Shown: positions 29,623 to 42,919, counted from the first letter of the stretch. The stretch: DNA of 64,000 nt from an uncultured Anaerolineales bacterium (GCA_964618295.1 CAZTWV010000012.1:929-64928); one strand, 5' to 3'. Notes: generated by a model not told the origin, from the sequence alone. Numbers and translations are program-made.

Positions 29623-29832
29623 GTGCCGAAGCCGCAAGCGGTCATTGATTACCAGGAATGCGATCCGGAGCGCTGTCCAGGGGAAATTTGCCAGGCGTCG
29701 TTAGTTTGTAAGCGGCGGGTAATCTGGCAGGAGGAAGCCAATCAACCCCCGATTATCTTCAGTGGAAAATGCCTCAGCTGCAGGGATTGTTTAGAAGCTT
29801 GCCCGCAGAATGCCATCCGGATAGTCAGATAA
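29623..29832 (+). CDS. Small 4Fe-4S ferredoxin-domain protein
   Basis: 69 aa with CDPERCPGEICQASLVC and a classical CLSCRDCLEACP. GTG start. Confidence 0.5.
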   Translation: MPKPQAVIDYQECDPERCPGEICQASLVCKRRVIWQEEANQPPIIFSGKCLSCRDCLEACPQNAIRIVR

Positions 29833-29835
29833 TTA

Positions 29836-30693
29836 TCAGGAGGGAGAGGACTCAATTCCAGTAATCTGGATGGTTTCGTAAGGCATCTCAATCTCTGCTG
29901 CTCGCAGGGTATCCAGCAGCATTTCACGCAAATCCGCCCGTTTTCCAACGTGGACCCGTTCATTTTCAAGCCAGACCCGGAGTTCGAGCTCAATATTGTA
30001 GTCGTTCAAGGCGGTCACCAAAACTCTTGGTTCTGGATCAGACAATAAATCCTGGTCCGCTGAAATTGCATCCAAAACCAGGTTTCTCACCTGGTGAATG
30101 TCTTCATTGACCCCGATGGAAAAGCTCATATCCAGGCGTAAATTGGGAAAGTTGGTGTAGGAGGCGACGGTTTTGTTGATCATCTCCGCGTTTGGGACAG
30201 CCAGCATACGGCCGTCCGGGGTCACTATCCGGGTGGAGCGAAGTGTGATCTGCTCCACTCTGCCGTAATTCTCTCCTACCTCAATTAAATCGCCGATCAC
30301 AAAAGGCCGGTCCAGGAAGATCAACAAGCCGGAGATCAGGTTGGAAAATGCATCCCGGGCTGCAAAACCAATTGTGATTCCAGCGATCCCCAGGGAAGCA
30401 AGCACAGCCGAGATATCCAGCCCGGCGACTTTCAGGGCGGTTAAGCCCCCGATAATTAATATGGTGTATTTCACAATTGTCCGGATGAAGACCTGGGTAG
30501 TTTGATCTTGATGACTGCGGTGCAGAATGGAGATGACTAATCTGCTGACCAGAAGCCAGACCAGATAAAAGATCAGGTAGACCAGGACGGCGCTGGTGAG
30601 CTGCACCAGCCACTCTCCCAGGATGGTACCCAGCTGCTCCGGTTGAAAAACCTGGGCTAACTCTGCAAACACATTTTCAAAAAAAGTATTCAT
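29836..30693 (-). CDS. Small-conductance mechanosensitive channel (MscS family)
   Basis: 3 TM segments followed by FSNLISGLLIFLDRPFVIGDLIEV...G.VEQITLRSTRIVTPDGRMLAVPN, the MscS pore and beta-domain signature. Confidence 0.85.
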   Translation of the reverse strand: MNTFFENVFAELAQVFQPEQLGTILGEWLVQLTSAVLVYLIFYLVWLLVSRLVISILHRSHQDQTTQVFIRTIVKYTILIIGGLTALKVAGLDISAVLASLGIAGITIGFAARDAFSNLISGLLIFLDRPFVIGDLIEVGENYGRVEQITLRSTRIVTPDGRMLAVPNAEMINKTVASYTNFPNLRLDMSFSIGVNEDIHQVRNLVLDAISADQDLLSDPEPRVLVTALNDYNIELELRVWLENERVHVGKRADLREMLLDTLRAAEIEMPYETIQITGIESSPS

Positions 30694-30771
30694 TACTTTT
30701 CCCCTGGGTTTTTAGCAAGGTTGGACTCCCAAGACAGCACTGGGAAATAAGATTTGGAGGATAAATCGTTG

Positions 30772-30990
30772 TCAGGCATCGATTCCCGGTGGTTTGATAC
30801 CGAGAATTTCTCTTGCCTGAACCACCTGATCTTCCCTGACCACCAGTTCTGAATACATGCTGTCACCCACATAGGATGAGGGAGATTTAATATGGGGAAC
30901 AACAACTGAAACAATTCCGTGTCCTTTTAATATCTGTTGATCGCGGTTTGCTTCAACTGTGGGCAGGATGTTTATAGTAATTGTTTTCAT
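30772..30990 (-). CDS. Small soluble protein, DUF2007-like (tentative)
   Basis: 72 aa with the pattern ...EA...L...GI...V.V.ED...A.EIL, reminiscent of the DUF2007/PII-like fold. No clear RBS (an A9 run sits upstream). Confidence 0.35.
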   Translation of the reverse strand: MKTITINILPTVEANRDQQILKGHGIVSVVVPHIKSPSSYVGDSMYSELVVREDQVVQAREILGIKPPGIDA

Positions 30991-31042
30991 AATTTTTTTT
31001 TGCTAAATCAAGATAGATAAAAAATGCCCAGTAAAGCGTGAT

Positions 31043-31720
31043 TTAGAACCCTCGTTTTTGTCCTTCCCAGGGGGGAGGATCCTGATTGAGATATTCATCC
31101 ACCCCCGGTCCTCCAAGCTTTCCAAGAAGCGATTGTCCGTAGATGTAGCTGGCGACAAGCACGACAATCAATGCCGGCCATCCGGTCAGGAGTTGAATGA
31201 TCCCCAGTGAGCTGGCTGAACCTTCCAGGAAAAAGTAGCCTTGAATCCCAAATTGAAGTCCGAAAAACACCATCCAGCCCCAGGTTACCTGATTATACGC
31301 TGGGCGAACCTTTGGATGCCAGTACCAGTCCAGCGGCCAACCCCGGGTCAGGTGGCTGCTGAAGCCTGCCAGCGGGCGTTGGGCAATAATGCTGACCAGC
31401 GCCAGAAGGAATGTGATCCCACTGGTGATCACTCCAGGAAGAAAAAAACCTTTCGGGGATTGTGAGACCCAGGCCAGAATACCAGCCAGGGCTGTAATCG
31501 CGGCTCCGCTGAGGGTGTACCCCAAAGCCTGTTTTTTCCAGGCCCGATAAGCCAGGAAAGCACCGGCAGAGATCAAAGCAATCAGCAGTGATATTTGCAG
31601 CGGGAGCAGTTCATGCAGGAGAGTGAATAACAGCGGGGGAAGGATCACATCCAACAGTGGGATGCGTCCGCTGAAAACTGATTTTATCTCCTGCAAAAGT
31701 TCATTAATTTTTGACATCAA
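31043..31720 (-). CDS. Polytopic membrane protein (DUF3159-like, tentative)
   Basis: 225 aa with 5-6 hydrophobic helices. No catalytic motifs recognised. Confidence 0.5.
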   Translation of the reverse strand: MMSKINELLQEIKSVFSGRIPLLDVILPPLLFTLLHELLPLQISLLIALISAGAFLAYRAWKKQALGYTLSGAAITALAGILAWVSQSPKGFFLPGVITSGITFLLALVSIIAQRPLAGFSSHLTRGWPLDWYWHPKVRPAYNQVTWGWMVFFGLQFGIQGYFFLEGSASSLGIIQLLTGWPALIVVLVASYIYGQSLLGKLGGPGVDEYLNQDPPPWEGQKRGF

Positions 31721-31763
31721 ACTGCTCCGGGTCTGGGTCTCACAAGGATTGATCAGGGGCGGT

Positions 31764-32549
31764 TTAGACTGGCGCCAGGGTTCCGGCGAAGATCTGCCAG
31801 GCCAGGGCGGTTTTTGCTACCAGACTCAAGACGATGTAAGCGCGTTCTCCAAAAAGATAATTTTTCCAGGGACCAACTTTCTTATACTGCAGGTACATAT
31901 TGACTGCAAAGCTGTTGAAGAACAAGAACAGAGAGACGATGATGGCGTAAACGAAGTTGGGCGGAGCGACATCATTAATCACAGCACTGCCGTACAGACT
32001 GACAGCCATTGCCAACCAGGGGATAATCCCGGCGATGCAGCCGTAAATAAACGAGGTCCAGCGCACTTTTTCCCGACCTTGATTGTCGTACTCCATCATG
32101 ATTCCGAACAGGTTCATCATCGCGTTGATCCCGAACAGCGCGATCAAGCTGATCAAATCCCAAATTCCAACCAGCATTGCAATCAGGACAATCATCAGGG
32201 ATGAGCTGAAAGCATATTCATAGAACCGAATTGGGTTCATATTTTTCTTCAGTTTTTCAACATAGGATTGATAACCGACGGTGGAGAGATAAAAATGCGC
32301 TACTGCTGATATCAGCAGGAAGGCACCCACGGCCGGGCCGAAACGGAGTTCATAAAAAAGATCCAGCCTGGGAACCAGTTGAAACTTCTCAATATTGAGC
32401 TCTAAAAAAGATGAATAAATCGGGTAGGTGCTGTCATTGCTGAGAATGATCATCGCCAACCCCTGGACCAGATGCAAAAAGCCCATGATGATATTAAACC
32501 TTCTCAGTCTGGGAAAAGTAAGTTTTGGATTTAAATTTTCCTGTGCCAT
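31764..32549 (-). CDS. Heliorhodopsin
   Basis: 261 aa, 7 TM. Near-identical blocks to the prototype heliorhodopsin as I remember it: RFYEYAFSSSLMIVLIA (counterion Glu), FIYGCIAGIIPW, FVYAIIVSLFLFFNSFAV, GERAYIVLSLVAKTALAWQIFAGTL (retinal Lys246, codon 31812-31814). Both conserved His residues are present (FLHLVQ, VAHFYL). AGGAG RBS. Confidence 0.9.
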   Translation of the reverse strand: MAQENLNPKLTFPRLRRFNIIMGFLHLVQGLAMIILSNDSTYPIYSSFLELNIEKFQLVPRLDLFYELRFGPAVGAFLLISAVAHFYLSTVGYQSYVEKLKKNMNPIRFYEYAFSSSLMIVLIAMLVGIWDLISLIALFGINAMMNLFGIMMEYDNQGREKVRWTSFIYGCIAGIIPWLAMAVSLYGSAVINDVAPPNFVYAIIVSLFLFFNSFAVNMYLQYKKVGPWKNYLFGERAYIVLSLVAKTALAWQIFAGTLAPV

Positions 32550-32584
32550 TTTTAACTCCTAGAATAAATTGGTTGGGGATATAT

Positions 32585-32911
32585 TCAAGCGTGCTTTCCC
32601 ATCCAGAACTGCTTCCAGTCACCTTCGCTCCGGGTGAGAGCCAGCAGTGTGTAGAGCGCTCCTGTGAAAAAACCAAGGGTCATCATTAAGATCACCCAGA
32701 TCCCTGCTGCGATAGGGGACTTTTCACGGTAAACAATCCAGATCGAGAAAAGCGTAAAACCGACGTACAAATCTACCAGGGAGACAATTCCCCAGGGATT
32801 GGAAAGAATTTTGGCCCCATCTTCTGAAAAATTGCCTACAGTAAAGCCGTAAATCAGGACTGCTGTCATGGCAATCACACCTAGCCAGGCGAGTAATTTT
32901 GCTATTTTCAT
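32585..32911 (-). CDS. Small 4-TM membrane protein (DUF1475-like, tentative)
   Basis: 108 aa with NPWGIVSLVDLYVGF and four hydrophobic segments. Lies 35 nt upstream of the heliorhodopsin gene on the same strand. Confidence 0.5.
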   Translation of the reverse strand: MKIAKLLAWLGVIAMTAVLIYGFTVGNFSEDGAKILSNPWGIVSLVDLYVGFTLFSIWIVYREKSPIAAGIWVILMMTLGFFTGALYTLLALTRSEGDWKQFWMGKHA

Positions 32912-32919
32912 TTTTCCTC

Positions 32920-33264
32920 CTAGAGCAGCAGCAAAGCACCGAAGACTATTTCAGTTCCGATGCTGATCCAGTTAGATGAAACTACGGATTTATCGACAAA
33001 CATGGACACCGTCCGGATCCCGGCAATCACCAGGTAGGTGATCCCCAGCATGGGATAGCTGACAGCGGGATCCAGGAAGAAGGCTGCGACAGCCAGGCCA
33101 ATGAAGACCCCGCCAAGAATTGAACGGATCTCAGTTATCCCCCGGCCCCCATCCGGGATTAACCCCGTAAAGCCCTGAATGCGTTTGGGAAAAACCAGGG
33201 AATAGAGGCCGGTCAATAAGGTTCCAAATAGGATAATTAGTTGAATGCCTTCTAGAATAGACAT
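32920..33264 (-). CDS. Small 4-TM membrane protein (unknown family)
   Basis: Hydrophobic ORF. The start is ATG 33264 (MSILEG) or 33300. Lies 8 nt from the next gene. Confidence 0.45.
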   Translation of the reverse strand: MSILEGIQLIILFGTLLTGLYSLVFPKRIQGFTGLIPDGGRGITEIRSILGGVFIGLAVAAFFLDPAVSYPMLGITYLVIAGIRTVSMFVDKSVVSSNWISIGTEIVFGALLLL

Positions 33265-33351
33265 CGTTTCCTCCTCAATGAGATTGCTTACTGCTTTCAT
33301 CCGCTCCCCCAGCAGCGGTCAGGTTCTTTTCGGTGATTTCATCAGTATAAA

Positions 33352-34194
33352 TTATCTATTGCTTTTTCCCTTGAAGGCAAAACCGATTGCGCCAGGACCC
33401 AGATGTGTACCCAGGACGGGTGTGACATTGACTGAAATTGGAAAGTTTTGATCCGGAATGAAGGATTTAACTTTTTCCCACAGCTCCTGGGCAGCCTGGG
33501 GAGCATTGGTGTGGACAAGCGCGAATTCTTCTATGGGCCCGAGATGTTTAATGGTATCGATTAACTTTTGGATCGCTTTGGTTTGGGTTCTGACCAGTTC
33601 TGAGGCCGGTTTTCCAAGGTTCATTTTAAGGATGGGTTTAACATGCAGAATACTGCCGATCCCGGCGACAATCCTTGACATCCGCCCGCTGCGGCGGAGA
33701 TAATCCAGGGTGTCAAGGGCAGCAAAGACGTAAAGATGCTTTTCGCGGTTTTTGAGCTCGCTGACAATGGATTCCAAGGATTCACCTTTCTGGGCAGCCC
33801 GGGCTGCGTACAGGACCTGGAAGCCAAGACCCATACTCAGCTGACCGGAATCCAGAACAACCACCGGGATTGGAGCCCGCTCGGCAGCTTTTCGAGCCAC
33901 ATCGACGGTGGCACTTAATGCTTCTGAGATGTGGAGGGAGATAATCTGATCTGCTCCCTGATCTGCCAGTTTTTGATATAGATCCAGGACGGCTTCAATG
34001 CTGGGGGTGGCTGTTGTTGGAGGTATTTCCGAGTCAGGAAGCATCTCATAAAATTCCTTTCGGCTAATCTCCACTCCGTCAATATACCCCCGATCTTTGA
34101 AATTTATGTAAAGGGGAATGAGGGATATGTCGTATTTTTCCAAATATTCCCGGGGAAGGTCACTGGTGCTGTCGGTTACAATTTTGATTGTCAT
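33352..34194 (-). CDS. DegV-family fatty-acid-binding protein
   Basis: MTIKIVTDSTSDLP...YDISLIPLYI N-terminus, SGQLSMG and LVHTNAP blocks typical of DegV/FakB. The start is taken at the internal ATG 34194. Confidence 0.85.
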   Translation of the reverse strand: MTIKIVTDSTSDLPREYLEKYDISLIPLYINFKDRGYIDGVEISRKEFYEMLPDSEIPPTTATPSIEAVLDLYQKLADQGADQIISLHISEALSATVDVARKAAERAPIPVVVLDSGQLSMGLGFQVLYAARAAQKGESLESIVSELKNREKHLYVFAALDTLDYLRRSGRMSRIVAGIGSILHVKPILKMNLGKPASELVRTQTKAIQKLIDTIKHLGPIEEFALVHTNAPQAAQELWEKVKSFIPDQNFPISVNVTPVLGTHLGPGAIGFAFKGKSNR

Positions 34195-34234: not shown

Positions 34235-34263
34235 ATGGTAGTTGATCTGACTGAATTTGTCAA
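34235..34263 (-). promoter_or_regulatory. Candidate promoter for the DegV-heliorhodopsin cluster (minus strand TTGACA-17 nt-TACCAT)
   Basis: On the minus strand, TTGACA is the complement of 34258-34263 and TACCAT the complement of 34235-34240, about 40 nt upstream of the DegV ATG. Confidence 0.5.
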
Positions 34264-34290
34264 GTATATGGGCAAAATATATCCAAAAGC

Positions 34291-34319
34291 TTGACAATAA
34301 TCTCGAGTAAAGGTAAACT
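34291..34319 (+). promoter_or_regulatory. Candidate promoter for the CarH-like regulator (TTGACA-17 nt-TAAACT)
   Basis: TTGACA 34291-34296 and TAAACT 34314-34319. Its -35 and the divergent -35 form an 8-bp inverted repeat, TTGTCAAG (34257-34264) / CTTGACAA (34290-34297). Confidence 0.55.
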
Positions 34320-34419
34320 AATCCTTGAATTCCCCTTATATAGATGCGGAAAAAGGATTAAAAATTACTTAGAAAATCTGGAAAATAAATATTTCAAGAT
34401 TTTTGAAGGATACGACAAA

Positions 34420-35757
34420 ATGGCACACGACAGAGAATTAGCGACATTCAATCTGGGGGTTGTTCTGCAGGAAACCGGGATCAATCCCGACACACTCCGG
34501 GCCTGGGAGCGCAGGTATGGTCTTCCCTTGCCGGAGCGGTCGGATGGCGGACACCGGCTGTACTCTGAGCGGGATATTGACACAGTCAAGTGGCTCCTGG
34601 AGCGTCAAAAAGAGGGGATGCGAATTGGACAGGCTGTCACCCTGTGGAAAAAGATATCCAACCAGGGAGACGATCCGTTTCTGGAGTATCCCTTACATGG
34701 AGCGGAGATGGAAAATTTTCTTGAATTTGAAGACAGCAAAAATACTGGAACGGATGAAATGTTTTCGATGGTTCGTGAGGCATGGCTGGATGCTGCCCTG
34801 GCGTTTCAAGAAGAAAAAGCTGAACAGATACTAACGGAAGCCTTTGCTCGATACTCTCTGGAAGATGTTTGGGAAGAGGTTTTGGTTAAGGGGTTGGAGA
34901 AAATTGGGGACAGCTGGTATGGAGGGGATGTTACAGTCCAGCAGGAGCATTTTGCGACCTCACTGGTGATTCAACGTTTGCACAGTTTAATCGAAGCTGC
35001 TCCACCTCCGATTCGAAAAGAGGTAATCACGGTAGCCTGTCCTCCGGGGGAAGAGCACACTCTGGCTCCCCTCTTGATCACTTTATTTCTGAGAAGAAAA
35101 GGGTATCCAGTGATTTATCTGGGAGCCAATGTTCCCCTAGCCAATCTGGAAAAATCATTAGAAAAGACCGGGTCGAAGATCATCATCCTGACTGCCCAGA
35201 TTCTGGAAACCGGTATGTCCCTGGTGCAAACGGCCCAGCGCTTAACCCAATCTGGATACCGGGTAGGGTATGGAGGTCGGATATTTAATTTGTTTCCTGA
35301 GCTCAGAAACCGGGTTCCCGGGATATACCTGGGACAGCGCTTAAGTGGTGTGGGAAACACCATTCAGGATTTGATCCAAAAACAGAGCGCTGAAGATTTC
35401 GAGAATATTGATATGCCTGAAAAATATCAAATTCTCTTGGAAGAGTTTGAAAAAATCGAATATAAAGTTTGGGACCGTTTGCGGGAACGATCAGAAACTT
35501 TTGATTTGACCAGGAACGAAATAGATTTTATCAACGGGAAATTGAATCAAGCTATCAAAGCCAGCCTATATCTGGGAGATATTCAGTACCTGGCAGTAGA
35601 ATTGAATTGGTTGGGAAATCTTTTGAAAAGCCGGAAAATATCCAATGACCAGCTAAAAAAATACCTCACTGAGACAGCTGGCATTCACCGGGAGCTGCTG
35701 GATAATGGAGAAAATTTGATTATCAATACTCTTATGGAAGCTGGTTCTGAGATTTGA
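34420..35757 (+). CDS. MerR-family regulator with a cobalamin-binding domain (CarH/LitR-like light sensor) and an extra C-terminal helical domain
   Basis: MerR HTH (FNLGVVLQETGINPDTLRAWERRYGLP...GGHRLYSERDI). Wx9EH motif (WYGGDVTVQQEH, W codon 34915, EH 34945-34950). B12 lower-ligand motif GEEHTLAP (His codon 35056-35058) followed by a Rossmann-like KIIILTAQ...GYGGRIF. About 130 extra residues sit at the C-terminus. Confidence 0.8.
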   Translation: MAHDRELATFNLGVVLQETGINPDTLRAWERRYGLPLPERSDGGHRLYSERDIDTVKWLLERQKEGMRIGQAVTLWKKISNQGDDPFLEYPLHGAEMENFLEFEDSKNTGTDEMFSMVREAWLDAALAFQEEKAEQILTEAFARYSLEDVWEEVLVKGLEKIGDSWYGGDVTVQQEHFATSLVIQRLHSLIEAAPPPIRKEVITVACPPGEEHTLAPLLITLFLRRKGYPVIYLGANVPLANLEKSLEKTGSKIIILTAQILETGMSLVQTAQRLTQSGYRVGYGGRIFNLFPELRNRVPGIYLGQRLSGVGNTIQDLIQKQSAEDFENIDMPEKYQILLEEFEKIEYKVWDRLRERSETFDLTRNEIDFINGKLNQAIKASLYLGDIQYLAVELNWLGNLLKSRKISNDQLKKYLTETAGIHRELLDNGENLIINTLMEAGSEI

Positions 35758-35819: not shown

Positions 35820-36806
35820 ATGAGAGCTGAAAAAATTGCAGGCAGCGGCCGAAAAAAAATTGGTATCGTTGGAACCGGTTTTGTGGGGAGTACGGCGGCT
35901 TATGCGATGGTTTTACAGGGGGTCGGGCGGGAAATTGTCCTGGTTGATATTGACAAGCAGCGGGCAAAGGCTGAGGCTGCGGATATTCTCCATGCTGTTC
36001 CATTTGGAACTGCACACCTTGTCACAGCCGGTGATTACAAAGATTTAGTGGGAGCTCAGGTTGTGATTATTACCGCGGGCAGTGCTCAAAAACCCGGGGA
36101 ATCCCGCTTGGATCTTCTGGAAAGAAATGCTGCAATCATGAAAGACATTGTCCACCGGGTACTGGAGGTTGCACCCGAGACAATCCTGCTGATCACCACC
36201 AATCCGGTCGATGTGATCACCCATCTTGCCGCGGAATATGCAGCTGAGCTAGGGATGCCAAAAACCAGGGTGATGGGGTCTGGAACAACCCTGGATACGG
36301 CTCGTTTTCGAGCATTATTAGGGCAGTACCTGGAGGTCGATTTCCGGCACATTCATGGATATGTGCTGGGAGAACATGGCGACTCGGAAATGCTGACCTG
36401 GTCTCTGGTTTCGATAAGCGGCATACCGCTGGATCAATACTGTGAGCAGTGCCAGATCAAAGTGGATCAGGAAGTCAAAAACCGGATTGTACATGAAGTT
36501 CGGGATGCCGCCTATGAAATAATTGACGGCAAAGGGGCAACTTATTACGGAATTGGGGGGGCTCTGGCACGAATTGTGGAAACGATTCTGAGTGATCATC
36601 GCTCCATTTTGACTGTTTGCACACCGGTGGAAGAGATTTGTGGGGTTAAAGAGGTAACAATTGCCCTCCCCAACCACCTCGGGGCGGAGGGAATCATTAA
36701 GACTCTTATCCCCCCCTTATCTCCCAAGGAACAGGATCTGCTGGCGGCCAGTGCCAGCCTGATAAAGGACGAAATTGAAACCTACAAAGCAGCAGTGGGC
36801 GATTAA
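35820..36806 (+). CDS. ldh: L-lactate dehydrogenase
   Basis: IGIVGTGFVGSTAAY Rossmann motif. ITAGSAQKPGESRLDLL has Gln at the substrate-specificity position, which is LDH-type rather than MDH-type. Catalytic GEHGDS. Confidence 0.82.
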   Translation: MRAEKIAGSGRKKIGIVGTGFVGSTAAYAMVLQGVGREIVLVDIDKQRAKAEAADILHAVPFGTAHLVTAGDYKDLVGAQVVIITAGSAQKPGESRLDLLERNAAIMKDIVHRVLEVAPETILLITTNPVDVITHLAAEYAAELGMPKTRVMGSGTTLDTARFRALLGQYLEVDFRHIHGYVLGEHGDSEMLTWSLVSISGIPLDQYCEQCQIKVDQEVKNRIVHEVRDAAYEIIDGKGATYYGIGGALARIVETILSDHRSILTVCTPVEEICGVKEVTIALPNHLGAEGIIKTLIPPLSPKEQDLLAASASLIKDEIETYKAAVGD

Positions 36807-36929
36807 ACTGTTCTGAAAGGTGTGTCATTGATGATGAAAAACAATCTGATGTTAAGCTTTTTGAGATCTGTATTTTTATCTTCCTGCGTGTTCTGGACCG
36901 GAATCGCGATTTAATAAAGGGGGATTGAT

Positions 36930-38399
36930 TTGAAGCCTGTTGGAGTGATTGGAGCCGGGATTGGCGGATTAGCAGCCGCCGCTTCTCTCTCAACAGCTGG
37001 AATTCCTGTCCAGGTCTTTGAAGCCCATATGTATCCAGGAGGATGCGCCGGAACATTTTTTCACCGCGGCTACCGTTTTGATGCCGGGGCAACCCTTGCC
37101 GGTGGCTTTGGGAAGGGGGGACCGATGGAGCGGGTTCGGCAGTTGTTGGACCTGGATTTAACGGGGCGGGAATCGGCTTTACCTCTCCGGGTCCATTTGC
37201 CGGATGGAACAATCGTAAACCGCTGGAGCGAAGCAGACAGCTGGAGAAGAGAACGAATTGAAAAATTTGGACTGGAAACGGAAACATTCTGGAACTGGCA
37301 GGAAAAACGGGCCAGCCAGCTCTGGTCCCTGACGGATTTCGATCTTCCCTGGCCCCCGCAAAAACTGACTGATTATCTGGAGCTGCTGGAGATTGGAGGG
37401 AAGTGGCTCTGGAAAACTCCAGGTTCCCTGACTGTGGTTGGAGATGCATTCCGTCCCGTACGGCACCATAATCAAAATCAATCCGATGCTTTCCAGCAGT
37501 ATCTGGATGGACAGCTGCTGATCTCTTCCCAGGCACCCAGCTGCAGGGCCAATGCACTCTTCGGAGCGGCTGCCTTAGATCTGTATAACACAGGGGTATT
37601 ACATTTCCAGGGTGGGATGGGGGCAATTGCCCACAGCCTTGCAGATGCAGTTCGAAAAAGGGGAGGGGAAATTCATTACCGGCACCGGGTGCACCAGGTA
37701 GAAAAAACAAGCAGTGGGTTTCGTATAGGAATTTATGGGAAGGAAGACTTTTTTTACCGGGATGTGGTGTTTAATCTCAATCCCTGGGGGGTGAGGAAGC
37801 TGGCCGAGTTTCCACTTCCGCGGCGTTTTCGGACTATTCCCAACCAACCTGAAAAAGGTTGGGGAGCGTTTATAGTTTATGTTGGTTTCCCGGCTGACCT
37901 GGTACCTGAGGATTTTCCCCTTCATCACCAGATCCTGACAGATTTTCCACCGGGAGAAAGGTACTCAGTTTTTCTCTCCCTCAGCCCAGCCTGGGATGCA
38001 GGACGAGCCCCCGGAGGCCGGCGGGCATTGACAATCAGCACTCACACGAAATTAAAACAATGGTGGAATTCAGCAGGTGAAATCAATCTGGATCATGAGC
38101 AGCTGCGAAGGGAGTTTCTTGACTTTACGCTGGATGCTGCCGAACGGGTCATCCCGGGTCTGCGGGAAAATGCTGAACTAACACTTTCCGGCACCCCAGC
38201 TGCATTTCAGCGATTTACCGGCAGGCCGTTTGGATGGGTGGGGGGATTTCCGCAGGTGGACTTGTTCCAGAATTGGGGCGCGCGGATTCAAAAAGGAGCC
38301 TGGATGGTCGGTGACAGCATATTTCCCGGTCAATCCGTTCCAGCCGCAGCGCTGGGAGGAATTCGGGTTGCAAAGCAAATCCTGAAGGGTATAAAATGA
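36930..38399 (+). CDS. Phytoene-desaturase-family FAD-dependent oxidoreductase (CrtD/CrtI-like)
   Basis: VGVIGAGIGGLAAA dinucleotide fold, GGCAGTF..GYRFDAGATL, C-terminal GDSIFPGQSVPAAALGG. TTG start after AAAGGGGGA. Confidence 0.72.
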   Translation: MKPVGVIGAGIGGLAAAASLSTAGIPVQVFEAHMYPGGCAGTFFHRGYRFDAGATLAGGFGKGGPMERVRQLLDLDLTGRESALPLRVHLPDGTIVNRWSEADSWRRERIEKFGLETETFWNWQEKRASQLWSLTDFDLPWPPQKLTDYLELLEIGGKWLWKTPGSLTVVGDAFRPVRHHNQNQSDAFQQYLDGQLLISSQAPSCRANALFGAAALDLYNTGVLHFQGGMGAIAHSLADAVRKRGGEIHYRHRVHQVEKTSSGFRIGIYGKEDFFYRDVVFNLNPWGVRKLAEFPLPRRFRTIPNQPEKGWGAFIVYVGFPADLVPEDFPLHHQILTDFPPGERYSVFLSLSPAWDAGRAPGGRRALTISTHTKLKQWWNSAGEINLDHEQLRREFLDFTLDAAERVIPGLRENAELTLSGTPAAFQRFTGRPFGWVGGFPQVDLFQNWGARIQKGAWMVGDSIFPGQSVPAAALGGIRVAKQILKGIK

Positions 38400-38414
38400 T
38401 AGGAAGTGAATGAC

Positions 38415-39371
38415 ATGAAAAACAATAAATGGTTATGGATCGGCACGATTGTTTTATTAATCCTGGTAGTCGGCCCGTTTTTGATCCCGGTGGGAACAGT
38501 GGGAGAAATCGATGACCCGAAGAGCCTGGCGGATCCAGACAGCCAGTTTATCCCGGTCAGCGGGTTGGATCTGCATTATAAATTGGCTGGAGAAGGCTCC
38601 CCGGTTTTTGTGCTTTTGCATGGCTTTGGAGCCAGCACCTACAGCTGGCGTTCTGTGGTAGAAGATTTAGCACAGGCCGGTACTGTCATTACCTATGACC
38701 GTCCGGGATTTGGATTGACTGAAAGACCGCTGGTCTGGGAAGGCGAGAACCCTTACAGTCCGGACGCACAGGTTGATATTGTCCTGGAATTAATGGATGA
38801 ATTAGATCTTGAGGAAGCTATCCTGGTCGGTAACTCTGCCGGTGGGACTGTGGCCTTGAACACAGCACTGTCAGCTCCCTCGCAGGTTTCTGCTTTGATC
38901 CTGGTAGATGCTGCGGTGTACGCCGGAGGAGGCTCTCCAGCCTGGGTCCGTCCCTTGCTTTTCACCCCGCAGCTGGACCATCTGGGTCCGCTTCTGGCCC
39001 GGACGATCTCTAACCGGGGGGATCAATTTATTATGAATTCCTGGCATCAACCCCAACGAATTCCTGATCAGGTCTTTATCAATTACCGGAAGCCCCTCCA
39101 GATAAAGAATTGGGATCGGGCGCTCTGGGAGCTGACAAAATCGAGCTACCCTCTCAATCTTGACCAGCGCTTGACCGAGCTTTCCGTTCCGACCCTGGTG
39201 ATTACCGGGGATGACGACCGGATTGTGCCCACCGAGGACAGCATTCGCCTCGCTTCGGAAATTCCAGGTGCAGACCTTGCAGTGATTGAGAACTGCGGAC
39301 ATTTACCGCAAGAGGAGTGCCCGGCTGAGTTTCTGGAAGCTGTTTTTGGGTTTGTATCAGAAACCCCTTAA
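38415..39371 (+). CDS. Alpha/beta hydrolase
   Basis: HGFGAS oxyanion region, nucleophile elbow GNSAGG, C-terminal GDDDRIV...CGHLPQEE (Asp and His). N-terminal TM anchor. GTG 38406 is an alternative start. Confidence 0.8.
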   Translation: MKNNKWLWIGTIVLLILVVGPFLIPVGTVGEIDDPKSLADPDSQFIPVSGLDLHYKLAGEGSPVFVLLHGFGASTYSWRSVVEDLAQAGTVITYDRPGFGLTERPLVWEGENPYSPDAQVDIVLELMDELDLEEAILVGNSAGGTVALNTALSAPSQVSALILVDAAVYAGGGSPAWVRPLLFTPQLDHLGPLLARTISNRGDQFIMNSWHQPQRIPDQVFINYRKPLQIKNWDRALWELTKSSYPLNLDQRLTELSVPTLVITGDDDRIVPTEDSIRLASEIPGADLAVIENCGHLPQEECPAEFLEAVFGFVSETP

Positions 39372-39415
39372 AGCTTTTGGCTTGGAGTGGATTGAAAAAA
39401 GGGGAGAGGAGAGTA

Positions 39416-40858
39416 ATGGCTGAAATCCGACAATCAACAGCAATCTGGTGGATCCGGGGAGATCTGAGAATTAAAAATAACCCGGCTTTGAATCAAGCTT
39501 TAACAGCGGGATACAGTGTATTGCCATTATTTATTTTTGATCCAGTGATTGAAAATTCTTCCCGGATGGGATCGGTCCGGATGGGATTTCTTCAAGGGGG
39601 CTTGTTGAATCTCAAGGATAAAATTGAAAAGGCTGGAGGAAATTTGATTATTCGGCGGGGGCAGCCCAATTTAGTTCTCCAAGCAGTTCTGGAGGAAAGC
39701 GGTGCTGAAAAGATTTTCGCGGAAGGAGATCTGACACCCTACGCCCGGCGGCGAGACCGACAGGTTTCCAACCAGCTCCCCTTGGAACTGGTATCGAGGC
39801 CAACGTATTCGCCGCCGGATCAAATTACCGCCCAGAGCGGAAATCCATATCAAGTTTATTCCCATTACCGGAATAAATGGAAAGATCTGAATTTGAAAAA
39901 GCTCCGGGCCACCAGGCTGTCCAATCCTCCCCAGCATTTTTTTTCTGGAAATCTTACCGGATTGGAGCTTGAAGTGGATTTCGGAGATTATTCTGATTCT
40001 GGATTTGTTCCGGGTGAAGATGCCGCTCGTTCCGTTTTAGAAGATTTCACAGCAGGTGAAGATCCACCGGTCTATTCATACCGGGAGAAGCGAAATCGTC
40101 CGGACCTGAGCGGCACATCGCGGCTTTCCCCCTATCTTCACTTTGGAATGATCTCAATCACCGAAGCATTATTGGCTGCCCTGGAGGCGATGGATCGGTC
40201 TCAAAATCAAGCCCAGCTTCAGAGTGCTGAAACCTGGTTGGATGAATTAATTTGGCGGGAGTTTTTTCAATACATTCTTTATCATAATCCCCAGGTCCTG
40301 CGCCAGAGCTACCGGGAAAAGCTGGCAGCAATTCCCTGGAGGAATGATCGGGAAGAGTTTTTATGCTGGAAAGAGGGCAGAACCGGATTTCCGATTGTGG
40401 ATGCGGCAATGCGGCAGCTCTCCCGCGAAAATTGGATCCACAACCGGACCCGGATGGTCACGGCTTCCTTCCTGGTCAAGGATCTATTGATCGATTGGCG
40501 CTGGGGGGAGGACTGGTTTATGGAGAATCTGCTGGATGCTGATCTTGCGAGCAACAACGGCGGCTGGCAGTGGGTTGCCGGAACAGGCACGGATGCTGCG
40601 CCGTACTTCCGGATATTTAATCCAATCACCCAGGGAGAAAAGCACGATCCCCAGGGAAGATATATCCGCGAATATGTTCCGGAACTCCGTCAGGTTCCAG
40701 GCAGGTACATCCATCAGCCCTGGACAATGCCGGAAAGCGTTCAGCAGGAATCGAAGTGTGTGATCGGGAAAGATTACCCGCCCCCGATAGTAGAACACAG
40801 TCAAGCCCGGGAGCGAACTCTTGAGGCTTATCAGTTTGCGAAAAACAGCAGTTCATAG
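39416..40858 (+). CDS. phr: Deoxyribodipyrimidine photolyase / cryptochrome-family flavoprotein
   Basis: AIWWIRGDLRIKNNPAL N-terminal alpha/beta domain. FAD domain blocks SRLSPYLHFG, WREFF, DADLASNNGGWQWVAGTGTDAAPYFRIFNP. RBS GGAGAGGAGAG before ATG 39416. Confidence 0.9.
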   Translation: MAEIRQSTAIWWIRGDLRIKNNPALNQALTAGYSVLPLFIFDPVIENSSRMGSVRMGFLQGGLLNLKDKIEKAGGNLIIRRGQPNLVLQAVLEESGAEKIFAEGDLTPYARRRDRQVSNQLPLELVSRPTYSPPDQITAQSGNPYQVYSHYRNKWKDLNLKKLRATRLSNPPQHFFSGNLTGLELEVDFGDYSDSGFVPGEDAARSVLEDFTAGEDPPVYSYREKRNRPDLSGTSRLSPYLHFGMISITEALLAALEAMDRSQNQAQLQSAETWLDELIWREFFQYILYHNPQVLRQSYREKLAAIPWRNDREEFLCWKEGRTGFPIVDAAMRQLSRENWIHNRTRMVTASFLVKDLLIDWRWGEDWFMENLLDADLASNNGGWQWVAGTGTDAAPYFRIFNPITQGEKHDPQGRYIREYVPELRQVPGRYIHQPWTMPESVQQESKCVIGKDYPPPIVEHSQARERTLEAYQFAKNSSS

Positions 40859-40907
40859 TGGTTTAGATTTCGAGAAGCAGATAACAATATAGCGACAAGG
40901 AGTAAAT

Positions 40908-41909
40908 ATGATTCTAAATCAATGGTATGCAGTCCTGGAGTCACGAGAAATTCCCTCTGGAAAACCGATTGGCGTGACCCGGATGGGTGAGAAGCTGGTA
41001 TTCTGGAGGACATCAGATGGAGATTTGTTCTGTTTTAAGAATGCCTGTCCCCACCGCGGAGCCGCACTGAGCACCGGTCTGATTATCGATGATCACCTGC
41101 AGTGTCCTTTTCACGGCTTTGAATTTGATTCCAGCGGACAATGTGTTAAGATCCCGGCCCTGGGAGAGGATGCCCAGCCTCCCAAAGCCATGAAAGCTCC
41201 TGGCTACCCTGTCCGGGAAAAATTTGGGTTTGTCTGGTTGTGGTGGGGTGAACCCCGGAGCAGCTATCCGGAGATTGAATTTTTTGAGTCGATTGATGAT
41301 GAGTTCAGTTATGTCACGGTTTGTGATCACTGGGAAACTCATTATTCCAGAGCCGTTGAAAATCAGCTGGATGTTGTCCACCTTCCTTTCATCCATCGGA
41401 CTACGATTGGGAGGGGAAATAAAACTGTGGTTGACGGCCCGATTAAGGAATGGGTTTGCGAGATGGATGACTGCGGGGTTTTAAATATCTGGGTATTGAA
41501 CCGCAAAGATAATGGAAAACCCGCCCGCAAGGAGCGGGATCTGGAAATACCCGACCGCAAACCATCCCTCCAGTTTCGGTATCCAAATGTCTGGCATAAT
41601 TGGATTGGGGAGCAAATTCGGGTAACGGCAGCCTTTGCTCCGGTTGACGATCAAAACACGCTGCTATACCTGCGCTACTACCAAAAAATAACCAATTTTC
41701 CGATATTGAAGCAGCTGATCGGGCTGTTGGGGCGAGTTGGGGTTCGGGTCATCACCAACCAGGACCGCTGGATTGTAGAGACCCAGATCCCAAAGAAATC
41801 CGGACTGAAAATCGGGGAGACCCTGATTCCGGGGGACAGTCCGATTATTGAATACCGCAGAATGAGAGATCAACTTCAAAAAGATGCAGAAATCAGGATC
41901 AAACAATGA
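40908..41909 (+). CDS. Rieske [2Fe-2S] non-haem-iron oxygenase (PaO/KshA-like alpha subunit)
   Basis: CPHRGAAL...CPFHGFEF Rieske ligands. Mononuclear iron motif ENQLDVVHLPFIH. AAGGAG RBS. Confidence 0.8.
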   Translation: MILNQWYAVLESREIPSGKPIGVTRMGEKLVFWRTSDGDLFCFKNACPHRGAALSTGLIIDDHLQCPFHGFEFDSSGQCVKIPALGEDAQPPKAMKAPGYPVREKFGFVWLWWGEPRSSYPEIEFFESIDDEFSYVTVCDHWETHYSRAVENQLDVVHLPFIHRTTIGRGNKTVVDGPIKEWVCEMDDCGVLNIWVLNRKDNGKPARKERDLEIPDRKPSLQFRYPNVWHNWIGEQIRVTAAFAPVDDQNTLLYLRYYQKITNFPILKQLIGLLGRVGVRVITNQDRWIVETQIPKKSGLKIGETLIPGDSPIIEYRRMRDQLQKDAEIRIKQ

Positions 41910-42919
41910 CAGCGACTTCGAATCAAGAACGTGTTCAAAGACAGGATCTCCGGGCTCTTTATGCGGGAATCCTTGTAAGTTTATTTTTTACCGGGCTGAT
42001 CTGGTGGGGAGGAAGAGCCCTTGAAAATATCCGTTTGCTCCCGGACCAAGGTGCTTCCTGGTACTACTGGAAGCTTCCAGAACCTACCTTCTGGACCCGG
42101 GCAACTGCCTGGGGTTTTTATGCCCTGCATCAAGTGGGATTATGGGGTTTGATTTATTTTGCCCAGACCCGGGTTAAAAAATATTCGCGGAAACTGCAAC
42201 GGGTCAATTTCTGGGCCCTGGGCTGGAATGTGTTTTTCATTTTGCTGCATTTTGTCCAAACCCAGATCTGGTATGACGGCTTAGCCCAGGATGTATCAAT
42301 CTGGAGTTCTCAGGCATCTGTCGTGCTGCTGCTGGTTTGGGTGCTGCTGATGGAAAATCAGCGGCGGGGGTTATTTTTCGGGCAAAAAATTCCCTTTCCA
42401 AAGCGAATTGGACGCTTTGCCAGGAAGTATCACGGCTACTTTTTTGCCTGGGCGATTGTTTATACCTTCTGGTATCACCCCATGGTTTCCACTTCGGGAC
42501 ACCTGTGGGGTTTCTTTTACATGTTTTTATTGATGCTCCAGGGAAGTTTGTTTTTCACCAGGATCCATCTTAATAAATACTGGACGTTTCTTCAGGAAGC
42601 GATGGTGCTGGTGCACGGTACTTTGGTTGCTGTGATGCAGGGAAATAATCTCTGGCCGATGTTTGCCTTTGGTTTTGGAGGAATGCTGGTGATCACCCAG
42701 CTGTATGGGCTCGGTTTAAAAGCCTGGCAGCGCTGGGTGGTCCTCGGAGTTTACATTGCAGCAGTGATTGGTGTCTACAGCCAGCGTGGGTTGAGCATGC
42801 TGAATGAGATAGTCCGGATCCCTGCTATAGAATATTTGCTGGTTTTTGCCCTGGCTGGAGCGATTGGGCTCGGGCTGTGGATTAATGAGCAGCTGAAGAA
42901 ATCAGGGGCCGAAAACTGA
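41906..42919 (+). CDS. Polytopic membrane protein of unknown function, translationally coupled to the Rieske oxygenase
   Basis: 337 aa with about 8 hydrophobic helices, Trp/His-rich (WYYWKLPEP, HFVQTQIWYDG, FWYHPMVSTSGH). ATGA overlap with the upstream gene. Confidence 0.6.
   Translation: MTATSNQERVQRQDLRALYAGILVSLFFTGLIWWGGRALENIRLLPDQGASWYYWKLPEPTFWTRATAWGFYALHQVGLWGLIYFAQTRVKKYSRKLQRVNFWALGWNVFFILLHFVQTQIWYDGLAQDVSIWSSQASVVLLLVWVLLMENQRRGLFFGQKIPFPKRIGRFARKYHGYFFAWAIVYTFWYHPMVSTSGHLWGFFYMFLLMLQGSLFFTRIHLNKYWTFLQEAMVLVHGTLVAVMQGNNLWPMFAFGFGGMLVITQLYGLGLKAWQRWVVLGVYIAAVIGVYSQRGLSMLNEIVRIPAIEYLLVFALAGAIGLGLWINEQLKKSGAEN

Follow-up and report, generated by a model that had tools for sequence, protein, structure and literature searches.

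Why does a heliorhodopsin (HeR) gene lie within a tight cluster of genes for a DegV-family protein, small membrane proteins, and a mechanosensitive channel? The question is raised by a 64,000-nucleotide stretch of DNA from an uncultured Anaerolineales bacterium (GCA_964618295.1 CAZTWV010000012.1:929-64928), called the window below. An earlier note on this DNA suggested a light-dependent response in membrane homeostasis, with the neighboring genes encoding possible interaction partners of the HeR. The answer favored here, which the sequence comparisons make reasonably probable, is that the locus represents a CarH/LitR-type light-inducible regulon made up of two back-to-back operons with one common operator. 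A B12-type regulator and an operator at a HeR operon provide a testable route into HeR function, and no paper describing such control of a HeR was found in the literature search.

The ORF at 31764..32549 (minus strand, 261 aa) is a genuine heliorhodopsin as judged by family and key residues. It matches Pfam PF18761 (E=2e-97, 325.7 bits, cutoff 26.7) and the NCBIfam HeR equivalog NF038020 (351.7 bits, cutoff 100), and its closest solved structure is TaHeR (6is6, E=1.6e-74). In the gap-free alignment with TaHeR, K246 corresponds to K238, the retinal Schiff-base Lys of the last helix, E111 to the counterion Glu E108, H26 to H23, and H85 to H82; the entry for the E108D mutant (7clj) confirms the counterion column. 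The retinal Lys, the counterion Glu, and both His residues are kept in 79-80 of the 81 HeR ORFs collected, and the Lys and Glu counterion in 80. The earlier assignment of this ORF, with the same four residues, is borne out by these matches.

All seven genes of the cluster are located on the minus strand in the order DegV, DUF4345-like, DUF1475, HeR, DUF3159, DUF2007, and MscS. The first gene encodes a DegV-family (FakB-like) putative fatty-acid-binding protein of 280 aa (33352..34194; PF02645, 4.6e-80) with a start codon that lines up across orthologues. This protein scores 275 bits against TIGR00762 (cutoff 99.7) and 169.5 bits, below the cutoff of 350, against the FakB1 equivalog. The second gene encodes a small membrane protein of 114 aa (32920..33264), termed DUF4345-like on the basis of a weak match under the Pfam cutoff (7.5e-4) and of 17 orthologues (52-76% identity), of which those in other loci score as DUF4345. 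A longer ORF starting at 33300 was replaced by the start at 33264, where orthologues begin with MSILE and a strong GAGGAGG Shine-Dalgarno sequence is present. The third gene, for a DUF1475 small membrane protein of 108 aa (32585..32911; PF07343, 1.8e-8), follows after 8 nt, and its Shine-Dalgarno sequence overlaps the stop of the preceding gene; DUF1475 has at least 6638 homologues and 43 invariant columns across 11 orthologues. Downstream of HeR are the genes for a polytopic DUF3159 membrane protein (224 aa, 31043..31717; PF11361, 1.2e-28, 18 orthologues) with a conserved PW.GQ.RGF motif at the C-terminus, and for a small soluble protein of 72 aa without a Shine-Dalgarno sequence (30772..30990). 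The latter is assigned to DUF2007 from a weak match (E=0.0088) and from an orthologue above the Pfam threshold (28.2 vs 25.7 bits). The last gene encodes an MscS-family mechanosensitive channel of 285 aa (29836..30693), in which all three parts were matched (TM2/3, PF21088; beta-domain, PF00924; C-terminal domain, PF21082), with scores below the NCBIfam equivalog cutoffs. It converges on a small ferredoxin-like ORF on the plus strand (29623-29832).

With the DUF4345-like start at 33264, the intergenic gaps are 87, 8, 35, 46, 52, and 78 nt. The tight same-strand packing described earlier is real, and the range of gaps is corrected from 8-78 to 8-87 nt. A crude hydropathy scan gave three clear segments in each of the membrane proteins earlier described as having four, four, and six transmembrane segments. 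Neither an intrinsic terminator nor a conserved internal promoter was detected in the cluster, and the seven genes are plausibly co-transcribed.

Two sigma-70-type promoters were found in the 225-bp spacer between the DegV gene and a divergent gene for a MerR/B12 regulator. The promoter of the HeR operon (34235..34263, minus strand) has TTGACA as the -35 hexamer (34263-34258), a 17-nt spacer, and TACCAT as the -10 hexamer (34240-34235), with 10/12 consensus bases. The promoter of the regulator operon (34291..34319, plus strand; TTGACA, 17-nt spacer, TAAACT) has a 10/12 match as well. A consensus promoter scan gave a site number no higher than in shuffles, and conservation is the better evidence. 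In the alignment of 8 loci, TTGACAAA and TAnnAT of the HeR-operon promoter do not vary, nor does the spacing between them, the -35/-10 positions are kept in seven orthologous loci, and TTGACA-17-TAnnnT is kept on the plus strand in 8 aligned loci.

The -35 hexamers of both promoters are spanned by an operator-like array of four 11-bp units with the CarH consensus nAnnTnnACAn (34254..34297, plus strand; best three units 34265-34297). The single recognizable promoter of the earlier note is present and conserved, but it sits inside this predicted operator of the divergent regulator. Both the repeat consensus and repression at the -35 by CarH/LitR have been described (PMC8156234). Two of the four repeats in the window are degenerate (3/5 and 4/5 specified bases); unlike in CarH/LitR systems, one repeat, the outermost, is inverted and doubles as the -35 hexamer of the regulator operon. 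On both strands of the window this array is the sole tandem CarH-type site at ≥13/15 (three units) or ≥16/20 (four units), where Markov shuffles gave 0.0 and 0.1 expected sites, respectively, against the one observed. An array was found at the same position in six of seven orthologous loci at ≥13/15.

Similar arrays were found at more distant HeR loci. Where a same-strand regulator lies upstream of HeR, arrays are located at the 5' end of the operon in L014, L022, L026, and L023 and, in weaker form, in L021 and L011. In L028, L030/31, and L033/34, where HeR is not immediately preceded by a regulator, the arrays lie directly in front of HeR. Sites of ≥13/15 within 4 kb upstream of HeR are present in 9 of the 33 Anaerolineae-type loci (background 0.0086 per 4 kb), and sites of ≥12/15 in 21 (background 0.19 per 4 kb). 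About one-third of the Anaerolineae-type HeR loci lack both the regulator and a clear array.

The divergent gene (34420..35757, plus strand), absent from the earlier note, encodes a candidate light sensor and repressor of 445 aa with a MerR helix-turn-helix, a CarH-type B12-binding part, and a C-terminal photoglobin-like domain (Pfam: MerR, B12-binding_2, and B12-binding). The protein matches TtCarH (5c8d) by phmmer at E=9e-33 with the W-x9-EH motif and the His ligand aligned; GDSWYGGDVTVQQEHF lines up with GEAWHRGEIGVAEEHL of TtCarH, the W-x9-E-H motif capping the adenosyl group. The W, E, and H of this motif, as well as E-x-H of the lower axial His motif, are invariant in 20/20 regulator orthologues. 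The window shares with the CarH/LitR systems of Thermus, Myxococcus, and Bacillus (PMC8156234) a MerR helix-turn-helix joined to a B12 domain with these residues, tandem 11-bp repeats overlapping the -35, a regulator within its own predicted regulon, and carotenoid and photolyase cargo. Unlike in CarH, the Gly of the E/DxHxxG motif is not conserved (A/S/P/T/G in the regulator clade, GEEHTLA in the window), and the score against the NCBIfam CarH equivalog is 158.3 bits, below the cutoff of 400. By these sequence measures the regulator is a CarH relative, not an equivalog.

A further difference from CarH is that the regulator has ~140 extra C-terminal residues, predicted to form a globin-like domain. 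The AF2 model of the regulator (pLDDT 87.5 overall, ~90 for the C-terminal helices 334-444) matched CarH 5c8d in Foldseek (E=4e-17) and superposed on the photocobilins 8j2w, 8j2x, and 8j2y (TMt 0.81-0.82, ~340 columns, rmsd ~3.5 Å) over the B12 domain and the C-terminal five-helix domain. This likeness lies in the modeled fold; at the sequence level, no similarity between the C-terminal domain and the solved photocobilins was detectable, and a profile of the domain found no photocobilin in the PDB. The MerR-HTH, B12, and photoglobin architecture has been catalogued computationally, and its MerR-type members are without experimental characterization (PMC10979010; PMC8717448); rhodopsin is not mentioned in the text of either paper. 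With the extra domain, oligomerization and the light response may differ from those of CarH.

Under the proposed regulation, the AdoCbl-loaded regulator would oligomerize in the dark, and the oligomer would occupy the four repeats at 34254-34297, cover both -35 hexamers, and block RNA polymerase. On exposure to UV, blue, or green light, the cofactor would be photolyzed, the repressor released, and both operons turned on. The plus-strand cargo would include the regulator, a carotenoid-type desaturase, an alpha/beta hydrolase, a photolyase, and a Rieske oxygenase, and the minus-strand cargo all seven genes from DegV to MscS. Unlike the known CarH/LitR regulons, this one would carry a heliorhodopsin and a DegV/membrane-protein cassette; no description of such cargo was found. 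By analogy with what has been published for other HeRs, the HeR made in light would most likely be a second-tier retinal photoreceptor modulating a co-expressed protein.

Comparison with related genomes provides information on the origin of the cluster. Conservation of gene order, on which the earlier note had staked its reading, was found: the order is identical in five loci of related Anaerolineales and, over the part that its contig covers, in a sixth. A core of HeR, DegV, DUF1475, DUF3159, and DUF4345 recurs in shuffled order in ~12 further Anaerolineae loci. MscS and DUF2007 adjoin HeR only in the window and the five loci of its closest relatives, and the membrane-tension theme is not borne out as a conserved one. 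Genomes were additionally sampled through DUF1475, with HeR sought within 8 kb. In six of the seven genomes sampled, a DegV/DUF1295/DUF1475/DUF3159/DUF4345 cassette was found with no HeR in this range; the neighbors are not obligate HeR partners, and by gene content the cassette is an independent unit. HeR occupies two positions in the cassette, between DUF1475 and DUF3159 (group A) or between the regulator and DegV (group B). In the HeR-less locus L086, the comparison for group A, DUF1475 and DUF3159 overlap by 8 nt. The HeR-less locus L084 is the comparison for the insertion position of group B. The genes for DegV and the small membrane proteins, together with DUF1295 in relatives, would represent a cassette that Anaerolineales already possessed, with a probable role in membrane lipids, and HeR was apparently recruited into it as an accessory gene more than once. 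Where the cassette has no regulator next to it (L086-L088), no repeat array was seen, so that light control is not a general property of the cassette.

A HeR-DegV(-DUF2177-DUF1295) neighborhood and a lipid-remodeling hypothesis were published by Chazan et al. (bioRxiv 10.1101/2021.02.16.431466; Environ Microbiol 2022), so the HeR-DegV link and light-dependent lipid remodeling are not new. As in that study, HeR adjoins DegV in Chloroflexi, DUF1295 is found in the same cluster (15 related loci), and the lipid idea is the same. In contrast to that study, the companions in the window are DUF4345, DUF1475, and DUF3159; a search of the whole 64 kb found no DUF1295, and Pfam gave no DUF2177 match among the cluster proteins. 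The independence of the cassette from HeR and the attached B12-type regulator and operator are further differences. No mention of DUF4345, DUF1475, and DUF3159 together with heliorhodopsin was found in the literature searched.

Clustering could also reflect interaction and not only shared regulation, with HeR physically partnering DegV, DUF4345, DUF1475, DUF3159, and MscS in a light-gated machine for lipid or tension homeostasis. HeR does lie within the cassette with short gaps, its two positions across lineages suggest selection for co-expression, and DegV is a statistically characteristic HeR neighbor across phyla (bioRxiv 10.1101/2021.02.16.431466). Other HeRs are reported to bind and regulate neighbor-encoded proteins, namely glutamine synthetase (AbHeR; PMC9529153), photolyase (TfHeR; PMC9769723), and an ABC transporter (OcHeR; PMC11109279). 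The window resembles these systems in having candidate clients in the HeR operon and a photolyase and an alpha/beta hydrolase nearby, and differs from them in the other neighbor families. We nevertheless consider such a machine unlikely. Besides the HeR-less cassettes and the restriction of MscS and DUF2007 to the closest relatives, cassette proteins from HeR-less loci resemble those of the window as closely as proteins from HeR loci do (for DUF1475, 63-71% vs 59-68%), and this equal similarity gives no sign of HeR-specific co-evolution. Moreover, in 46 HeR loci of Patescibacteria, Thermoplasmata, and other groups, none of these neighbor families was found close to HeR. The idea that the neighbors are interaction partners is weakened, and shared light-regulated transcription is at least as good an explanation of the clustering as physical contact between the proteins.

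In the 34 Anaerolineae-type loci counted along with the window, the commonest HeR neighbor is the MerR/B12 regulator (22/34, compared with 19 for DegV), a count in favor of the proposed regulon. In another reading, HeR might be placed upstream of the regulator, as a membrane photoreceptor signaling to the MerR/B12/photoglobin protein, for example via its C-terminal domain. The regulator-HeR adjacency is the most conserved one: in group B the two genes directly adjoin and share a strand, in L004 and L021 they form the sole conserved pair, and the HeR-less loci L081 and L083 carry a DICT sensory-domain protein in the slot after the regulator. A precedent is a short LOV protein reported to use a class II LitR as its effector (PmSB-LOV/PmlR2; PMC9758184), and a 'MerR family regulator', along with an alpha/beta hydrolase, has been listed among frequent HeR neighbors and operon partners (PMC11109279). 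However, the regulator retains every residue for its own B12 photochemistry, and members of the same subfamily control carotenoid/photolyase loci that have no HeR in their vicinity. An operator in front of the HeR gene places HeR among the targets of the regulator; a feedback loop would be compatible with this. Signaling from HeR to the regulator is accordingly improbable to our minds, and the MerR neighbor in the window is read as a regulator of HeR expression, not as a client.

In the favored regulon, the genes downstream of the regulator (35820..42919, plus strand) would form the second operon, their co-transcription being predicted solely from spacing. These genes encode an L-LDH (35820-36806), a CrtD/CrtI-like (carotenoid-type) desaturase (36930-38399), an alpha/beta hydrolase (38406-39371), a DNA photolyase (39377-40858), a Rieske oxygenase (40908-41909), and a His-rich membrane protein without a known family (41906-42919). 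That this photolyase is the HeR partner, as in Trichococcus flocculiformis, where TfHeR is reported to enhance photolyase activity (PMC9769723), with the DegV cassette as a co-regulated bystander, is very improbable: the photolyase gene lies 7 kb off in the same predicted regulon and a photolyase family recurs no more than 10 kb from HeR in at least eight related loci, but photolyase never immediately adjoins HeR in these loci, and photolyase is standard in CarH/LitR-type loci with or without HeR, so that the regulator alone explains its presence. Elsewhere, homologues of the regulator belong to classic light regulons whose other genes include those for phytoene synthase, CrtI, photolyase, and lycopene cyclase.

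The 261-aa ORF at 31764-32549 (-) of the window matched the Pfam family PF18761 with an E-value of 2e-97 and the NCBIfam heliorhodopsin equivalog with 351.7 bits (cutoff, 100). Its best solved relative was the Thermoplasmatales heliorhodopsin (PDB: 6is6; E = 1.6e-74), and the alignment between them is free of gaps. In this alignment, K246 corresponds to the Schiff-base Lys, E111 to the counterion, a column backed by the E108D mutant entry 7clj, and H26 and H85 to the two conserved His residues. These positions were kept in 79-80 of the 81 heliorhodopsin ORFs collected. Judged by sequence, the product is a heliorhodopsin (HeR), and the hallmark residues listed in an earlier note on this DNA (Lys, Glu, and both His) are thus confirmed. 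The same-strand cluster of seven genes also stands: seven minus-strand ORFs lie in a row at 29836-34194, surrounded by long plus-strand gene stretches.

The cluster starts with DegV (Pfam, 4.6e-80), followed by a DUF4345-like protein with a weak Pfam match in the window, DUF1475 (1.8e-8), HeR, DUF3159 (1.2e-28), a 72-aa DUF2007 protein, and MscS, which carries three Pfam domains; all are encoded on the minus strand. The DUF2007 match is weak in the window, and an orthologue scores above the Pfam threshold. The start of the DUF4345-like gene was placed at 33264 from its orthologues, so the intergenic gaps are 87, 8, 35, 46, 52, and 78 nt; the tight packing noted earlier is retained, but not the range of 8-78 nt. 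A crude hydropathy scan gave no confirmation of the TM numbers in the earlier note (two 4-TM proteins and one 6-TM protein). The spacers upstream of DUF2007 and MscS showed no conservation among orthologous loci, and terminator and promoter scans of the window gave counts at shuffle level. An ORF for a 69-aa 4Fe-4S ferredoxin-like protein, 29623-29832 (+), converges on the MscS stop codon at a distance of 3 nt; no terminator-like site was seen for either gene.

A scan of species-representative genomes with the window HeR yielded 80 loci, which were grouped by tblastn, ORF clustering, and HMMs built from orthologues. The closest loci, herein referred to as group A (L001-L007), all belong to Anaerolineales MAGs, and their HeRs are 80-83% identical to that of the window, which assigns the window to this order of Chloroflexota. 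The window order (DegV, DUF4345, DUF1475, HeR, DUF3159, DUF2007, and MscS) was found in L001, L003, L005, L006, and L007, with an extra gene after DegV, and L002 agrees with it up to DUF3159, where the contig ends; the gene order on which the earlier note had staked its proposal is thus conserved in related genomes. Only the regulator described below and HeR are retained in L004. The extra gene encodes DUF1295 in four loci and a 477-aa membrane protein in two, and neither follows DegV in the window, which has no DUF1295 gene anywhere. The 477-aa protein (L001:7818-9251 and its L003 equivalent) is polytopic, has no Pfam match, and replaces DUF1295 between DegV and DUF4345; in the window this slot is an empty 87-nt gap. 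Group B comprises about 13 loci with HeRs 62-68% identical to the window HeR, where the regulator and HeR are followed, on one strand throughout, by most of DegV, DUF4345, DUF1475, DUF3159, and DUF1295 in shuffled order. A chance juxtaposition of HeR and its neighbours was considered and rejected, since the same families occur in 18-23 of the 34 Anaerolineae-type HeR loci. MscS and DUF2007 accompany HeR in group A only. Thus, the HeR neighbourhood has a conserved core, but the mechanosensitive channel lies outside it. In 46 loci from Patescibacteria, Thermoplasmata, and other lineages, the HMMs detected no DegV, DUF4345, DUF1475, DUF3159, DUF1295, DUF2007, or regulator within 10 kb of HeR, so the association is lineage-restricted here; MscS matches were found near HeR in two of these 46 distant loci (L042 and L045).

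The MerR/B12 regulator gene, divergent from DegV, was omitted from the earlier account of the cluster. Its ORF spans 34291-35757 (+), and the start was put at 34420 on the basis of orthologues and promoter position. The product matched Thermus CarH (PDB: 5c8d) with an E-value of 9e-33, with the W-x9-E-H motif and the axial His in register. Both are invariant in all 20 regulator orthologues, among which the Gly of ExHxxG is not conserved. All orthologues have about 440 aa and are about 140 aa longer than CarH. An AlphaFold model built with 33 homologues (pLDDT 87.5) has a C-terminal five-helix domain. In a Foldseek search the best E-value was that of CarH (4e-17), and the photocobilins 8j2w, 8j2x, and 8j2y were matched far more fully (TMt 0.81-0.82, rmsd about 3.5 A, about 340 columns). 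Photocobilins are photoreceptors for B12 and biliverdin with a C-terminal globin-like "photoglobin" domain (PMC10979010); the architecture of MerR-HTH, B12, and photoglobin domains has been catalogued computationally and never studied experimentally (PMC8717448). The C-terminal domain of the regulator had no Pfam match, and its sequence profile gave only noise against the PDB, with no detectable similarity to solved photocobilins. The model suggests that the regulator may belong to the photocobilins as a MerR-type member, with a bilin as an additional means of light sensing. The C-terminal 140 residues are encoded at 35329-35757, and their five helices, together with the B12 domain, superpose on photocobilins in the AF2 model. 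Three additional proteins of the regulator's subfamily, sampled from other genomes, are flanked by genes for phytoene synthase, CrtI-type desaturases, photolyase, lycopene cyclase, P450, and AhpC, which is typical cargo of a light regulon.

Each CarH DNA-binding domain recognizes one 11-bp direct repeat nAnnTnnACAn, and CarH operators consist of three or four tandem repeats overlapping the promoter (PMC8156234). Both strands of the 64-kb window were scanned for three tandem units with at least 13 of the 15 specified bases. A single site was found, at 34265-34297 (0.0 such sites in Markov shuffles); its four-unit version at 34254-34297, 44 bp long, has 16 of 20 bases (0.1 in shuffles). DegV and the regulator are separated by 225 bp; this operator-like array lies within that spacer and includes the -35 hexamers of two promoter-like sites, TTGACA-17-TACCAT at 34263..34235 (-) and TTGACA-17-TAAACT at 34291..34319 (+). 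Across eight aligned group A spacers, the conserved blocks are the repeats, both -35 boxes, and both -10 boxes, and the best-scoring array is at the equivalent position in six of the seven group A loci. In group B, the operon of regulator and HeR has such arrays at its 5' end. In L028, L030/31, and L033/34, arrays lie directly upstream of HeR, and the regulator is not immediately upstream. In total, a site with at least 13/15 matches occurs within 4 kb upstream of HeR in nine of 33 Anaerolineae-type loci (background, 0.0086 per 4 kb).

Downstream of the regulator, on the same strand, genes were found for L-LDH, a CrtD/CrtI-like desaturase, an alpha/beta hydrolase, a photolyase, a Rieske oxygenase, and a His-rich membrane protein. 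The gene identities, synteny, operator array, and B12 motifs can be read directly from the sequence and indicate that the locus is most likely a CarH/LitR-type light regulon. In the dark, the regulator with its AdoCbl would be bound to the shared operator and mask both -35 boxes; in the light it would be released. The plus-strand operon, if it extends as predicted, would then supply photoprotection and repair functions (desaturase, photolyase, hydrolase, oxygenase), and the minus-strand operon HeR and the cassette of DegV and small membrane proteins, joined in this lineage by DUF2007 and MscS. Under this scheme, we infer that HeR would add a second light input, based on retinal, to a protein expressed along with it.

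The cassette was also approached from the opposite side. A search with the DUF1475 protein gave at least 6638 homologues, from which seven were taken solely by the length of their contigs and checked by tblastn. All seven loci have cassette genes, in varying subsets of DegV, DUF1295, DUF1475, DUF3159, and DUF4345, and HeR was found within 8 kb of the cassette in only one. The regulator is present in four, with arrays upstream in each; the three loci without it have no repeat arrays. L086 has the group A order minus HeR, with DUF1475 and DUF3159 overlapping by 8 nt, and L084 the group B order minus HeR. Relative to those of the window, cassette proteins from HeR-less loci have not diverged further than those from HeR-containing loci. 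From sequence comparison, HeR seems to be an addition to an older cassette, which it entered at two separate points; this argues for selection for co-expression. Together with the HeR-less loci, it also means that the cassette can do without a nearby HeR. In the HeR-less L081 (5716-6285) and L083 (7332-7898), the regulator is directly followed by a stand-alone DICT sensory-domain protein (PF10069), in the slot that HeR has in group B; in L094 (14052-14651) such a protein is encoded about 4.7 kb downstream of the regulator.

These data bear on the earlier idea that the neighbours are interaction partners of HeR. HeR may contact cassette proteins or MscS directly, and the pressure for co-expression favors this, but the cassette stands without HeR within 8 kb in six of the seven sampled loci. 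Alternatively, HeR may signal to the regulator, for which a LOV-class II LitR pair offers a precedent (PMC9758184); or it may assist the photolyase (cf. PMC9769723). All three possibilities are compatible with the light-regulon reading. A more specific scheme, which we regard as rather improbable, would make the Anaerolineae HeR the output of a two-tier cascade: a MerR-photoglobin repressor using B12, and possibly bilin, would license transcription in the light, and retinal-bound HeR would then light-gate the conserved membrane-lipid cassette (DegV, DUF1295, DUF1475, DUF3159, and DUF4345), along with MscS in this lineage. If true, this would constitute a physiological pathway for a bacterial HeR in membrane photoprotection.

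To our knowledge, heliorhodopsins still largely lack an established physiological role, and no more than three of their partner proteins are on record. The 44-bp operator and soluble regulator provide access to whether HeR expression itself is light-controlled via B12, and the candidate clients form a short list: DegV, three small membrane proteins, MscS, and the photolyase. The association of HeR with DegV (and DUF1295/DUF2177), strongest in Firmicutes and Chloroflexi, has already been published, together with the hypothesis of light-dependent membrane-lipid remodelling (bioRxiv 10.1101/2021.02.16.431466); the earlier interpretation, light-dependent membrane homeostasis, is partly supported and in part not new. 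A "MerR family regulator", alpha/beta hydrolase, and photolyase have been described as frequent HeR operon neighbours, without B12 or an operator (PMC11109279). In a literature search with partial journal coverage, no paper was found on heliorhodopsin with MerR and cobalamin or with DUF3159, DUF1475, or DUF4345, and nothing relevant on heliorhodopsin with CarH/LitR or on DUF1295 and light. New here are the link to a B12 regulator and operator and the independence of the cassette from a nearby HeR. This probable CarH-type regulon is distinguished by a photoglobin-extended regulator and by cargo that includes HeR and an autonomous DegV cassette. The reverse-synteny result warns against equating neighbours with partners: the DegV cassette, which is dominant in the published statistics on HeR neighbourhoods, is an autonomous module and frequently belongs to the same predicted light regulon as HeR. 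If the regulator also binds bilin like photocobilins, B12, bilin, retinal, and flavin photochemistry would be combined in one regulon.

The His-rich membrane protein, 337 aa, 41906-42919 (+), has six conserved His residues and is encoded by the last gene of the regulator-side operon. It had no Pfam or NCBIfam match, and its AF2 model (pLDDT 70) had no PDB fold match with E < 1; its 3461 homologues are all annotated as 'hypothetical' and mostly come from Anaerolineae. A role as the missing retinal or carotenoid enzyme was considered, and no family or fold match supports it. The protein may be an unrecognised enzyme of the light regulon. A homologue is encoded at L090:6906-8035 behind a perfect 15/15 CarH-type array, and L091:5704-10341 contains an operon of M50 peptidase, His-rich protein, MFS, and HeR behind a 14/15 array.

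Among the other HeRs, those of L010, L012, and L032 (Anaerolineae/Chloroflexia) have Lys/Ala/Pro-rich N-terminal extensions (MTKKKSAPAK...), and their loci have neither regulator nor repeat array. In Saccharibacteria, a second, divergent HeR-like ORF (L074:11293-11778; 25% identity) lies about 500 bp downstream of the L074 HeR. At the far end of the window, an ORF of more than 2257 aa, 57230-64000 (+), continues past the window end.
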